From: Escherichia phage XJA18-XJ-2024
DNA length: 50,572 bases
Strand: one strand, 5' to 3'
Sequence record: PV584117.1
The position numbers and the translations under genes were made by a program. Below, piece by piece: positions 29,298-40,576 of this stretch. Position 1 is the stretch's first letter, and the number at the start of each line of letters is the position of its first letter. The notes under the pieces are model-generated. The model did no database searches, was not told the DNA's origin, and saw nothing but the letters and a program-made list of their open reading frames with translations.

Positions 29298-29353
29298 TTC
29301 GATTTTCTCTCTTCGTTGTCGATGAGGTAACTATATCAAATCACCCCACCGAC

Positions 29354-29374
29354 GTTTTAGCAATTCGTGCTATT
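29354..29374 (-). promoter_or_regulatory. promoter cassette box (AATAGCACGAATTGCTAAAA on minus strand)
   Basis: followed 22 bp later by TATAGT in a hairpin, then CATCGACAACGA box. Confidence 0.55.
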
Positions 29375-29942
29375 TATTGATGAACGTGGCGGCTATGTGA
29401 TGAGCGGTAATTTCTGGATGACCTTCGACAGAGAAGAAGTCACATTCCTGATAACCGTTAACCCCGATCATATCTTCCAGGTAGATATAGTCTCGACTGT
29501 CATTATCGAAGTTGCAACCGTTGCGATGTATTCGACATAGCTTGACCTGGATATCACCTTCAATCATCTGCAAGACTTCGTCTTTGAATCCACCATCAGT
29601 AAATACCGAAAGGGAGTGCGACTCTTTCACCTTGCTTTCCGCTCGCATACCGAAGAAGCGATTTCCGAACTGCGGCTTGATGACTTCCTCGCTAATCCAG
29701 ATCATAAACTGGCGCGGGCTTTTACCGTTCAGGATTGATGCTGGCTCTTCTTTATATCGACGGTCCTCATACAAGAACATGAAATACTCGTAGTTAGCTT
29801 CACCCAGGATTGCCCGGGCAATCTCAAACATTGGCGATTTGAAGCTGCGCAAGGCTACGTGATCGTAAGTGTCAGCAAGGATGCACCCGATAGTGTCTTT
29901 TCCCGCTCCCGGTGCGCCGTTTAAAATGATAGCTGTTTTCAT
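29370..29942 (-). CDS. P-loop kinase, polynucleotide 5'-kinase candidate
   Basis: 190 aa; Walker A GAPGAGKDT; adjacent to HAD phosphatase. Confidence 0.55.
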   Translation of the reverse strand: MKTAIILNGAPGAGKDTIGCILADTYDHVALRSFKSPMFEIARAILGEANYEYFMFLYEDRRYKEEPASILNGKSPRQFMIWISEEVIKPQFGNRFFGMRAESKVKESHSLSVFTDGGFKDEVLQMIEGDIQVKLCRIHRNGCNFDNDSRDYIYLEDMIGVNGYQECDFFSVEGHPEITAHHIAATFINK

Positions 29943-29946
29943 GTTA

Positions 29947-30054
29947 GTATCTCCCTAAAAATAACTTTGCCACATTGATGATGGTGTGATTGATGATTAA
30001 CAGGATGATAACCGTTAACACCGGATGTGCTGCAATAAATTCGTACAGGTTCAC
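29947..30054 (-). CDS. small hydrophobic peptide (tentative)
   Basis: 35 codons; GTG overlaps phosphatase stop (GTGA); AAGGAG 8 nt upstream; one predicted TM helix; below track length cut-off. Confidence 0.25.
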
Positions 30055-30662
30055 TTCAATAACTCCTTGCACTTAATGCATATTTTATCGCCAAATGGCG
30101 GTAGCGGCTCAGATGGTTCATGATTGCAAGCCTCATCTACGCCATGAGATTTTAAATGATCGTGAACATTATCGCCATAGTCAACTACAGCATACGTTGT
30201 TATTCCAAGAGAGCGGAATAATGGAATAATTTGCGGTGAGTCATCCCAAGCCGCCAAGATGTTCTCAATGCCGATAGCGCGCACTGCCTCTTCTTTCATT
30301 ACCGTGTCTTTGCGGTTGTCGGTATGCGGTCGCATGACTAAGTAATCATATCGAGCACCGTGATGCTTAAGCCATAACTCAGATGCGTAACGCACCTCAT
30401 CACTTCGCCCGGTTAAAATGATCACATGATACCCAGCGGCAAACATAGAGTTCATCACATCGATCGTGCTCTGGATTGGGTTATCAAATATTGCCGCTCG
30501 GTTAAACTCAGACCAGCTTTCAGTCAAGTGCAAATCCTTTGTCGGCAGCAGGTGAAGTCGACCAGATCCATCGCTAAGTGTCCCGTCAAAGTCAAAGATT
30601 GCCACGCGGCGCGTGCCGAGAAACAGGTTGATTGTCTGGCCCCAAATGGTGATTTTATCCAT
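30051..30662 (-). CDS. HAD-family phosphatase, polynucleotide 3'-phosphatase candidate
   Basis: 203 aa; HAD motif I FDFDGTL; conserved RBS; next to kinase. Confidence 0.6.
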   Translation of the reverse strand: MDKITIWGQTINLFLGTRRVAIFDFDGTLSDGSGRLHLLPTKDLHLTESWSEFNRAAIFDNPIQSTIDVMNSMFAAGYHVIILTGRSDEVRYASELWLKHHGARYDYLVMRPHTDNRKDTVMKEEAVRAIGIENILAAWDDSPQIIPLFRSLGITTYAVVDYGDNVHDHLKSHGVDEACNHEPSEPLPPFGDKICIKCKELLK

Positions 30663-30727
30663 GATTTATTCCTCTGATTGATTGCTTAACTCAACGAAGG
30701 GCATTCTATCAAATACCCTTGAGCAAG

Positions 30728-30747
30728 TTTTAGCAATTCGTGCTATT
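30728..30747 (-). promoter_or_regulatory. promoter cassette box
   Basis: AATAGCACGAATTGCTAAAA (minus strand); 22 bp to TAGAAT inside hairpin AAGGGTA/TGCCCTT. Confidence 0.55.
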
Positions 30748-31191
30748 ACCAGCAACTGATCTCATAATCAGCCCAAGCGTCAAAGCTACACTGACTGAAG
30801 TCGCCGCCGTAGTTTTCCATAATTTCATCGACCAGGAAGTAGCAGGACTCACCGTTACGGTAGAAGTATGAATCTGCAACGTTACGCGCCCAGCGTCCGG
30901 CATCCTTCTTGCTCATCTTCCAGTATTTCATTGCAATTTTCTTGAATGCACGCACAACACGCTTGCGTATCTTAATGTGCTTGTACACCGCGTTGCAGCC
31001 GTAGGCCATATATTCGTTATCACCAAGATTCTGCATAATGTACGGATTTACTTCTTTTGACGTAATCATCAGATCGCCATCGCATAGACGCGCATCATGA
31101 ATACTTGCTGTCATGTAGTGGCCTTTGAACATTCCAATGCCGTGCAGAGTGTGTTCATTGTTAGGTGTATCAATGCAAATCAAATGTTTCA
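30746..31191 (-). CDS. hypothetical protein
   Basis: about 148 aa; start moved to ATG with GAGGGA RBS (track start lies within the leader hairpin). Confidence 0.45.
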
Positions 31192-31247
31192 TGAGTATTC
31201 CCTCGTTTGTTGGTATAGGGGAATCATAGCGCATTCCCCTTGATAGG

Positions 31248-31267
31248 TTTTAGCAATTCGTGCTATT
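31248..31267 (-). promoter_or_regulatory. promoter cassette box
   Basis: AATAGCACGAATTGCTAAAA (minus strand); 22 bp to TATGAT; hairpin AGGGGAAT/ATTCCCCT. Confidence 0.55.
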
Positions 31268-31468
31268 CGTTTTAATAGTGATGCAAAAATAATTTTTTAA
31301 GCACGTCACCACGCGCGCTGAATCGACTTGTGGGAGCCTTAAAATTTCATGGACCAATTGCACTGCCGATACGTCAAATTTGTAGTAGTGTGCGATTCTG
31401 GAGGTATTTGGTCGCATTCCTTCCACTGCTTCACGTGCTGCATCTTCTGCTGTCATGATAGTAGCCAT
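31250..31468 (-). CDS. hypothetical protein
   Basis: 72 aa; stop codon supplied by the TAA inside the 20-bp box. Confidence 0.4.
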   Translation of the reverse strand: MATIMTAEDAAREAVEGMRPNTSRIAHYYKFDVSAVQLVHEILRLPQVDSARVVTCLKNYFCITIKTNSTNC

Positions 31469-39087: not shown

Positions 39088-39104
39088 CTGGTTAAGGGGG
39101 AGTA

Positions 39105-39425
39105 ATGAACCACACTTACAAAATCACAACGAAGTCACCGAAGATTAACGGAAGCACGGTTGCGGCACTGAATAACGCGGCGGCAATTCACGAAAAAAAT
39201 ATCATGGAGCGAGTGAAGGCGGCGGTAGGTAGATTCTACGGGATCAATGCCGACATTGCCGACAGCAAGCGACTGTTCAAATACGTTCCAGGTCATCCAT
39301 ATGGCAGGATGATTGATATCAAGCATGAAAAAGAATTGGTTCGAATCGGATCGCTAACCATTGATGAGTTCGATCATAGCATCAACCTAGTGACGGCGTA
39401 TCAAACTTGGGACGGTAAAAAATGA
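39105..39425 (+). CDS. hypothetical protein
   Basis: 106 aa; RBS AAGGGGGAG. Confidence 0.45.
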   Translation: MNHTYKITTKSPKINGSTVAALNNAAAIHEKNIMERVKAAVGRFYGINADIADSKRLFKYVPGHPYGRMIDIKHEKELVRIGSLTIDEFDHSINLVTAYQTWDGKK

Positions 39426-39565
39426 TTTATATTCACACTTTCTATACTGGCAAATTTAACAGCGTAAAAAATGTTCGAGTTTACGATAGCCACCAAAAAG
39501 CAATGATGCAGAAAGTAGTTCTAGGCGGCACAATCAAAGAGTGCAAAGTAATTTCTGAGTACTGA
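39422..39565 (+). CDS. small hypothetical protein (tentative)
   Basis: 47 codons starting ATG overlapping upstream stop (ATGA); below track length cut-off. Confidence 0.3.
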   Translation: MIYIHTFYTGKFNSVKNVRVYDSHQKAMMQKVVLGGTIKECKVISEY

Positions 39566-39583
39566 TAGCACGAATAGCTAAAG
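39564..39583 (+). promoter_or_regulatory. promoter cassette box
   Basis: GATAGCACGAATAGCTAAAG; hairpin GGGAGTA/TACTCCC with TATAT loop. Confidence 0.5.
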
Positions 39584-39641
39584 ACAATTAGCAGGGAGTA
39601 AGGTATATTACTCCCACACCAAACAAACAAAGGAATTAAAA

Positions 39642-39866
39642 ATGAGCATTAAAGTTGAGAATATCATCAAGCACCTGAACGCGAAAGGCCGTGTAGTTAT
39701 CAAAATGGATAAGTCTTCCGGCTTTATTTCAATGACGGTAACTAAGGCTCGTAACGGTAATAACGTTATCGGCAGCACTCCAGGCTCGCGCTTAGTAAAT
39801 GCAACAGATGCCGATGTTCGTGCTACGCTTGAAGCAAACTCAATTTATATTAATTCGTGGAGTTAA
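39642..39866 (+). CDS. hypothetical protein
   Basis: 74 aa; RBS AAAGGAA. Confidence 0.45.
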   Translation: MSIKVENIIKHLNAKGRVVIKMDKSSGFISMTVTKARNGNNVIGSTPGSRLVNATDADVRATLEANSIYINSWS

Positions 39867-39869
39867 TTA

Positions 39870-40079
39870 ATGGAGCAGGATAATTTTTGGACCCGTTATT
39901 TTGCAGCGCTTGATGCTGGACTTAGTGCCGAATGGTGCATCAAGGTTGCATATAAAGAAATAACACTTGATGAGGCTCTTGGCGATATGGATATGAATGC
40001 TGAAAGCGAATACGATCCTAACTTTGAATTACCTAGTGATGATATTAATGAAGACGACGACGATTATATTCCCTGGTAA
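39870..40079 (+). CDS. small acidic protein with SSB-tail-like C-terminus
   Basis: 69 aa; C-terminus NEDDDDYIPW resembles the SSB acidic tip DDDIPF. Confidence 0.5.
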   Translation: MEQDNFWTRYFAALDAGLSAEWCIKVAYKEITLDEALGDMDMNAESEYDPNFELPSDDINEDDDDYIPW

Positions 40080-40098
40080 ATAGCACGATTTGTTAATA
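40079..40098 (+). promoter_or_regulatory. promoter cassette box
   Basis: AATAGCACGATTTGTTAATA; 22 bp to TAAAGT; hairpin AAGGTCA/TGACCTT. Confidence 0.55.
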
Positions 40099-40159
40099 TT
40101 GCCGTAAGGTCATTTGATAAAGTGACCTTATTCAAGATAACCAATCAGGAGTTAACGAA

Positions 40160-40576
40160 ATGAAATCCATCAAACTGAAATGTACTCACGCAGATAAAAT
40201 CACAGGATTTGAAGTAAACAACCTATACAAAGGTCGTGAGCGCTATGATGGCACTCGTGAAATCAAGTTAAAATGCGGCAAGTATTTAAAACTTGAAAAG
40301 CATGATGAATTACAGATTCACGGATCTGATGAAATCTTCTTCGCTAAGTTCACTGAGTTGAAAACAAAGACGCTCAAGTGCACCGGGCTTGACCATCGCA
40401 ACCCAATGAAAAAATCATTCAAAGTTGGCAAGCGTTACCAGGTTGAAAGCGGTCGCGCTCTCGGTGGCGTAGCTGGTTACATCTTTGATGAAGATGGTTG
40501 TCGATGGACCTTGTTTCGCGAAGAGGTTGGTTTTAGTATCGCAGACGGCACAACCTTTGAGGCCAAATACTTATAA
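40160..40576 (+). CDS. hypothetical protein with internal repeats (K-x-K-C family)
   Basis: 138 aa; repeated KLKC/TLKC segments; RBS ACCAATCAGGAG. Confidence 0.5.
   Translation: MKSIKLKCTHADKITGFEVNNLYKGRERYDGTREIKLKCGKYLKLEKHDELQIHGSDEIFFAKFTELKTKTLKCTGLDHRNPMKKSFKVGKRYQVESGRALGGVAGYIFDEDGCRWTLFREEVGFSIADGTTFEAKYL

Follow-up and report, generated by a model that had tools for sequence, protein, structure and literature searches.

What do hairpins do when they are built around the -10 elements of repeated phage promoters? The question is raised by sequence record PV584117.1 from Escherichia phage XJA18-XJ-2024, a stretch of 50,572 nucleotides that was analyzed as a whole (hereafter, the window). 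The window belongs to a T1-like phage (Drexlerviridae, Tunavirus), is 92.6% identical in its region to Escherichia phage vB_EcoS_SA12KD, and resembles many other T1-like phages. Its gene arrays carry a recurrent intergenic cassette in which a conserved box is followed by a -10-like hexamer and a ribosome-binding site. An earlier reading of the sequence (the original prediction) held that each cassette between about 29300 and 40160 has, between box and ribosome-binding site, a hairpin with arms that differ between copies but stay complementary; that the structure and not the sequence is selected; and that the hairpin could be an RNA 5' stabilizer, an RNase III site, or a DNA cruciform presenting the -10. 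All ten arm pairs that it listed are present at the positions given. The functions that it offered fare less well than its structural claim, and our analysis points to another: the hairpins are probably stem-loops nested in internal promoters, where they would act on transcription reading in from upstream as terminators or attenuators, or as barriers protecting a 3' end.

The box has the consensus TAGCACnnnTTGyTAAA and is present in 22 copies in the window. The pattern TAGCACNWWTTGYTAA occurs 22 times against 0.06 expected, in every case co-directional with the local genes, and further weak copies of the box lie at 4576, 10869, 44505 and 46161 (-). A typical cassette has, in sense order, the stop codon of the upstream gene (beside or inside the box), the box, a variable stretch and a TATAGT-like hexamer at a constant 22 nt past TTGyTA; then come either a CATCGAAACGA-like motif or a CAACCAATCAGAGGA ribosome-binding context and an ATG about 76 nt from the start of the box. 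TTGyTA was considered as a -35 hexamer and ruled out, since it would leave a 22-bp spacer. In IMG/VR, ATAGCACNNNTTGNTAAA was found at 120 loci, with few exceptions in T1-like genomes of 46-52 kb including TLS and Rtp, and these loci supplied 270 unique cassettes from other T1-like genomes. Their profile places the -10 at fixed positions 38-43 (T64 A77 T66 A56 A47 T79 percent), with a G at -14, a feature of extended -10 elements, in 70%. The hexamer is followed by a C-rich discriminator and then, 7 nt past it, by a conserved C49-A50 (A in 70%), which we predict to be -1 and +1 of the transcription start. No -35 hexamer is found 17±1 bp upstream of the -10, and the conserved TAGCAC...TTGyTAAA box stands in its place. 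The composite element would then consist of a stop codon, a box of 17-20 bp (-50 to -31), a spacer of 17-18 bp, an often extended -10, the C-rich discriminator, the start, a short A-rich leader, a Shine-Dalgarno sequence and the ATG.

To locate the hairpins in the window, positions 17-62 of each cassette were folded and given a z-score against 300 dinucleotide shuffles; 13 of the 22 boxes reach z <= -2.5 (Table 1). Between 29300 and 40700 a clear hairpin is found in 12 of 14 cassettes, with none at 36828 and a weak one at 37797, so that attributing one to each cassette was a slight overstatement. The boxes that lack a hairpin are atypical: 36828 has neither an upstream gene nor a -10, and 27526 is followed immediately by a start codon, while 997, 17057 and 20820 stand in non-array contexts. 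Box 36828 has the divergent early promoters on one side and the methylase gene on the other, and a role as decoy or operator is conceivable for it. The arms are in general complementary as described, the exception being AAGGGTA/TGCCCTT, which pairs imperfectly through one G·U.

Hairpin anatomy follows the layout of the promoter. In 79 of 142 strong stems (class A), the 5' arm lies in the spacer and the 3' arm in the discriminator, leaving the -10 in the loop or partly in the stem; the mean stem is 8.4 bp and the mean loop 10.3 nt (range 4-21). Another 35 (class B) lie wholly in the spacer and end at positions 37-40, abutting the -10, with a mean stem of 6.9 bp and a mean loop of 5.1 nt. The -10-like hexamer is thus carried by the loops of class A and adjoined by the stems of class B, in agreement with the original prediction. 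The 5' arm begins upstream of position 50 in 134 of the 142 strong stems, 5' arms lying at -33 to -17, and the 3' end of the stems peaks at position 49, that is, at -1. Since the stems sit in the spacer and discriminator, the hairpin makes use of promoter positions that have no sequence requirement.

The complementarity of the arms proved to be a property of individual cassettes. In 53% of the 270 cassettes, the stem is at or above the 95th percentile of shuffled sequence. In a swap test, in which the 5' half of one cassette was joined to the 3' half of another so that positional composition is kept and cassette identity broken, stems scoring at least 16 were found in 26.7% of native pairs and in 2.9% of swapped pairs. 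For a non-redundant set of 122 cassettes with less than 80% mutual identity, all from outside the window, the mean minimum free energy (MFE) is -10.4 kcal/mol for native cassettes versus -7.0 for chimeras, and none of 300 permutations is as low. Orthologous cassettes, defined as those with homologous downstream genes, carry compensatory changes: GGGG/CCCC versus GGTG/CACC; GCGGGGTA/TACCCCGT versus GACGGTGTA/TACACCGTC; and, by a G-C to U-A change, GGGGTTGC/GTAACCCC in the orthologues of cassette 34081 versus TGTGGTTGC/GTAACCACA in the window. An orthologue of cassette 40581 bears GGGCGGGGTA/TACCCCGT, and the arms of the cassette 33523 hairpin are kept in five orthologues. One-sided changes to G·U also occur, as in an orthologue of cassette 39566, where GGGGGTAA yields a G·U pair. 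Swapping, permutation and the compensatory changes among orthologues all support the view that it is the structure of the hairpin, rather than its sequence, that is selected. When a single fixed register (i + j = 75) is imposed on the 122 cassettes, 38.9% of cells are paired versus 36.6% in shuffled sequence, a value that 12 of 500 shuffles reach. This weak signal indicates that complementarity is cassette-specific and not maintained column by column, and a single homologous aligned RNA motif was rejected on the same ground. Rfam has no family at gathering threshold anywhere in the window.

Several properties bear on whether the selected structure is one of RNA or of DNA, and on which strand. 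Among class B hairpins with four-base loops, 11 of 13 distinct stems have UNCG or GNRA loops in the sense orientation and none of the 13 has them in the antisense orientation; chance would give about 5%. In 105 distinct stems, G·T pairs number 51 and A·C pairs 5, beside 809 Watson-Crick pairs, although the stem finder gives the two mismatches equal scores; one spurious stem accounts for three of the A·C pairs, and collapsing the set to 56 hairpin families leaves 31 G·T against 5 A·C. The MFE is lower for the sense than for the antisense strand in 175 cassettes and higher in 86. The tetraloops, the G·U pairs and the sense-biased folding favor a sense-strand RNA structure. As the 5' arm precedes the predicted start, the hairpin cannot form in the transcript of its own cassette, and RNA containing it must arise by read-through from upstream promoters.

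These observations suggest a mechanism in which two signals share one intergenic space. A class A hairpin would be written into the spacer and discriminator with the -10 left in its loop, and a class B hairpin into the spacer alone with its stem abutting the -10. Either would form solely in RNA reading in from upstream promoters and could there serve as a terminator or attenuator, as a barrier to 3' exonucleases, or as both. The hairpin would in this way mark the end of the upstream message, while the downstream gene would stay dependent on its own promoter. We infer the start site from the cassette profile, and the terminator, attenuator or barrier function from position and from analogy with the promoter-early stem-loop (PeSL) cassettes of T4-type phages, which are composite promoter-terminator units (Arbiol et al. 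2010, PMC2839356; Comeau et al. 2014, PMC4122927). Hairpins are found in 66% of cassettes where a long co-oriented upstream open reading frame ends at the box versus 46% otherwise (p = 0.0014). Class B in particular resembles intrinsic terminators, having GC-rich stems of 6-9 bp, UUCG or GNRA tetraloops and, right after the stem, the U/A-rich -10 region, which supplies 3.7 T in the next 8 nt. The class B loops fit the short-loop (3-8 nt) terminator criterion, which class A loops mostly do not, and the tail score reaches terminator grade in 59% of class B stems versus 24% of background. The annotators of SA12KD labeled the same hairpins rho-independent terminators, among them the hairpin of cassette 32797.

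A number of results weigh against this interpretation. Class A differs from intrinsic terminators in its long loops (mean about 10 nt) and in the lack of a U tract: the 8 nt after the stem contain 1.2 T, and the tail score is -1.96 versus a background of -2.17. It therefore fails the definition of an intrinsic terminator, and a canonical terminator identity for this class was rejected on the tail scores. The tails of class B are no U-richer than those of hairpin-less cassettes, in which the T-richness after the -10 was compared, and a simple terminator scan is passed by only two hairpins in the window. The excess of G·T over A·C, when counted by family in non-promoter columns, falls to 11 versus 5 and is not significant (p = 0.21). 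A literature search found no mapped transcription starts or transcript data for T1-like phages, and the start used here is a predicted one. Finally, hairpins occur in 62% of cassettes with a good -10 versus 19% of those without, a distribution that a promoter role at the level of DNA predicts equally.

Such a role is what the cruciform of the original prediction would provide: in supercoiled DNA, the inverted repeat would extrude as a cruciform or single-strand hairpin, expose or flank the -10, and tune melting. Besides the tie to promoter-competent cassettes, its appeal lies in arms that flank or abut the -10 and stop at -1, and a precedent of a kind exists in MarA, which reportedly activates one promoter through a distortion of base pairing beside its site (PMC12781870). 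Yet sense-only UNCG and GNRA loops and an excess of G·T over A·C are not what a two-stranded cruciform would lead one to expect; extrusion is disfavored by class A loops of 4-21 nt and by wobble-bearing arms, and presentation of the -10 by the fact that class B does not enclose it; and both register and class vary among orthologous cassettes. We regard a DNA-level element as unlikely.

A stabilizer at the 5' end of the downstream message is quite unlikely. It would require either a start upstream of the hairpin or the cutting of read-through RNA within the box, and its attractions are a sense RNA hairpin placed just upstream of the leader and an AU-rich box that is presumably single-stranded. 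The position of the start speaks against it, as the original prediction had itself taken a start downstream of the hairpins to count against a hairpin in the leader: the start at position 50, predicted and not mapped, lies downstream of the 5' arms and leaves them outside the cassette's own transcript, and a processing site in the box is without evidence. In some window cassettes a hairpin that would lie in the true leader can be drawn (positions 45-49 with 58-62 around ATCGAAAC). This candidate was rejected, with 2.15 versus 2.02 pairs and 106 of 2000 permutations reaching the native value; it contains many A·C mismatches and does not covary.

The comparison with PeSL cassettes bears on the preferred reading, a stem-loop acting on read-in transcription, and also on recombination. 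In both systems, repeated intergenic units among small, mostly unknown genes run from a stop codon through a promoter to a Shine-Dalgarno sequence and ATG, and the usual place of the stem-loop is between the -10 and the upstream promoter element, or over the -10, just before the start; in PeSL cassettes the former position is between -35 and -10 (PMC2839356). G-rich and C-rich arms with G-T pairs are likewise common to both (PMC2839356), as is cassette exchange among related phages, PeSL cassettes being known to mediate gene shuffling (PMC2839356, PMC4122927). One tested PeSL stem-loop cut read-through about as much as rrnB T1 (PMC2839356). The differences are that PeSL cassettes belong to T4-type myoviruses and the present ones to a siphovirus family, Drexlerviridae; that PeSL cassettes have a consensus sigma-70 -35 and an AT-rich tract where the T1-like cassettes have, from -50 to -31, a box that resembles a marbox and is strictly conserved; and that promoter and terminator activity is measured in PeSL cassettes and predicted here. 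The T1-like element is a PeSL-like promoter/stem-loop cassette in another phage family, with an activator-type box replacing the -35.

Exchange of cassettes is directly visible in the comparison of genomes. Orthologues of the gene downstream of cassette 35876 carry, depending on the phage, two different class B hairpins or one class A hairpin, and replacement before orthologous genes is also seen in the groups of cassettes 39566 and 40081. Different cassettes before orthologous genes indicate replacement by recombination, as described for PeSL, where crossovers were mapped in or beside the stem-loop (PMC2839356). It is conceivable, though again quite improbable, that the cassettes are mainly crossover sites for the swapping of small genes, with the diversity of arms limiting deletions between neighbors. 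Crossover sites of this kind need conserved flanks and not a paired stem, and the maintained complementarity and RNA-type tetraloops would be left unexplained; the idea is at the same time compatible with stem-loops that stop read-in transcription. Least plausible of all is a site for RNA processing by RNase III as known from T7, a very remote prospect despite the intercistronic position and the one 15-bp stem at 29318-29353, the longest in the window, as the stems here measure 6-15 bp, typically 6-9 bp, and known RNase III substrates have about two helical turns, some 20 bp or more of duplex. Hairpin promoters of the N4 type, which have a 5-7 bp stem, a fixed 3-nt loop and a phage RNA polymerase, were also considered and set aside; the loops here are variable and span 4-21 nt.

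The box has been seen before. The 2024 reannotation of phage TLS listed only three sigma-70-like promoters and left unexplained a set of 21-nt direct repeats, aaATAGCACnnnTTGnTAAAA, for which a stoperator, an enhancer site or an UP element was considered; no RNA polymerase or sigma gene was reported in that phage (PMC11447400). The TLS repeats are the same box in the same orientation and intergenic position. The fixed -10, the nested hairpins and the marbox match described here do not appear in that report.

The marbox match concerns the box and not the hairpin. With the consensus AYnGCACnnWnnRYYAAAY, reportedly given by Martin et al. in 1999, and at most one mismatch, there are 21 matches in the window against 1.06 expected. 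The consensus GCAnnWWnTGnnAAA (PMC12052159) has 19 exact matches against 0.87 expected, and the form GCAHWWWWTGYYAAA (PMC6900184) perfectly fits the TTTTT and TAATT variants of the box. Examples lie at 38213-38231 (+) and 35134-35152 (-), and box 36828 has 14 consecutive bases, CACGTTTTGCTAAA, in common with the marRAB marbox of E. coli MG1655. With respect to the predicted start, the box faces forward, is centered at about -40, extends from -50 to -31 and replaces the -35, which is the class II arrangement by criteria of orientation and position (PMC12052159, PMC10268841). In Salmonella, class II sites are likewise forward-facing and concentrated at -41, at promoters without a recognizable -35 (PMC10268841). 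The box thus fits a MarA/SoxS/Rob binding site in class II geometry, sharing with the class II MarA/SoxS/Rob (RamA) promoters of Enterobacteriaceae the consensus, the forward orientation near -40, the lack of a -35, and a -10 and a start of canonical form. Among themselves the phage boxes vary far less than host marboxes do, and this stricter conservation leaves room for a dedicated phage factor. Searches of the window by tblastn with MarA and SoxS gave nothing credible, Pfam and PHROGs scans recognized no DNA-binding domains in ten early proteins, and a literature search returned no paper linking marboxes to phage promoters. We tentatively propose, as a possibility somewhat short of an even chance, that in T1-like phages the roughly 20 internal promoters are of class II and depend on MarA/SoxS/Rob (RamA in Klebsiella and Enterobacter), with stem-loops that would stop read-through and so leave each small gene unit under the sole control of its activator-dependent promoter.

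Other features of the cassettes were noted. The box bears TAG (positions 1-3) and TAA (positions 14-16) in two reading frames in all cassettes, and upstream genes terminate inside it or within a few nt (e.g. 37810-37812), so that the box also serves to signal the end of a gene. At the predicted start, about one-third of cassettes (102/302) have the motif C-A(+1)-TCGAAACGA at positions 49-59, as at 35093-35103 (-) and 37845-37855 (+); the hairpin suggested by this motif shows no covariation. Many share the ribosome-binding context CAACCAATCAG(A)GGA, conserved well past a normal Shine-Dalgarno sequence (37088-37100 (+), 38268-38281 (+) and 35074-35088 (-)).

The hairpins and related features are collected in Table 1. 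Two gene arrays diverge, leftward (-) from about 36450 and rightward (+) from about 37100, and the near-consensus -35/-10 sigma-70 promoters of this area are found only in the AT-rich control region, on both strands. The interval 36450-37100 contains long (TA)n-like tracts at 36670-36740, short direct repeats including caacaatcacat twice near 36914-36960, and ttccag/tggaa motifs at 36990-37035; early promoters and an origin may be located here. A small early protein encoded at 35622-35816 (-) matches the Pfam family PF25180, 'Phage antiviral trigger protein Gp54' (E = 8.5e-35). In the left gene array, a textbook intrinsic terminator lies at 31584-31609 (-), with GGGGAA...TTCCCC followed by TTTCTTTTGG; canonical terminators thus also have a place in this phage, apart from the cassette hairpins.

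Table 1. Cassette hairpins and associated features in the window; z-scores are from the window folding, and cassettes are named by position.
Feature	Coordinates	Strand	Details
Class A hairpin, cassette 29357	29318..29353	-	15 bp, 2-3 G·U, TGATAT in loop; box 29356-29372; -10 TATAGT 29330-29335; predicted start 29323; MFE -22.4 kcal/mol; z = -6.1
Class A hairpin, cassette 30730	30689..30724	-	AAGGGTA...TGCCCTT, one U·G; box 30729-30745; -10 TAGAAT 30703-30708; z = -3.7
Class A hairpin, cassette 31250	31217..31240	-	AGGGGAAT/ATTCCCCT; 3' arm overlaps -10 TATGAT; stem ends at -1; z = -3.9
Class A hairpin, cassette 32797	32757..32794	-	AAGGCCA/TGGCCTT core; -10 TATAGT 32770-32775; z = -2.6
Class A hairpin, cassette 33523	33492..33520	-	GGGGATT/AATCCCC; 15-nt loop with TGgTATAAT; z = -1.1 only
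Class A hairpin, cassette 34081	34038..34078	-	TGTGGTTGC/GTAACCACA; z = -3.9
Class A hairpin, cassette 35136	35100..35130	-	GGGGTA/TACCCC; -10 TATAGT 35109-35114; predicted start 35102
Class B hairpin, cassette 35876	35854..35874	-	GCCCGGTC...GATCGGGT, all in spacer, then -10 TATTAT; passes terminator-like scan
AT-rich divergent control region	36450..36811		gene arrays run outward from it
Box without hairpin and without -10 at usual distance	36828..36844	+	first (+)-side box of divergent control region
Weak irregular pairing, cassette 37797	37815..37856	+	z = -1.9
Class B hairpin, cassette 38214	38232..38251	+	CCCCGA gtgaga TCGGGG; -10 TATAGT directly after; z = -3.1
Class A hairpin, cassette 39566	39594..39615	+	GGGAGTAA/TTACTCCC; z = -4.6
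Class A hairpin, cassette 40081	40104..40131	+	TAAGGTCATTT gata AAGTGACCTTA; -10 TAAAGT within stem; z = -5.6
Class A hairpin, cassette 40581	40609..40635	+	TTGACGGTGTA/TACACCGTCAA; z = -4.8
Class B hairpin, cassette 42743	42762..42780	+	beyond the range of the original prediction; folding and scan
Class B hairpin, cassette 46495	46472..46491	-	GAAA tetraloop
Class B hairpin, cassette 47518	47495..47514	-	folding

T1 is one of the classic coliphages, and for its relatives the analysis gives the TLS-type repeats a defined promoter model consisting of the box, a fixed -10 and a predicted start. The PeSL principle is extended from T4-type myoviruses to an unrelated family of siphoviruses. Should the marbox reading prove true, phage gene expression would be wired to the host sensors of bile, antibiotics and oxidative stress, and a whole phage family would depend on host MarA/SoxS/Rob, a dependence that would matter for phage therapy in the gut and during antibiotic stress.

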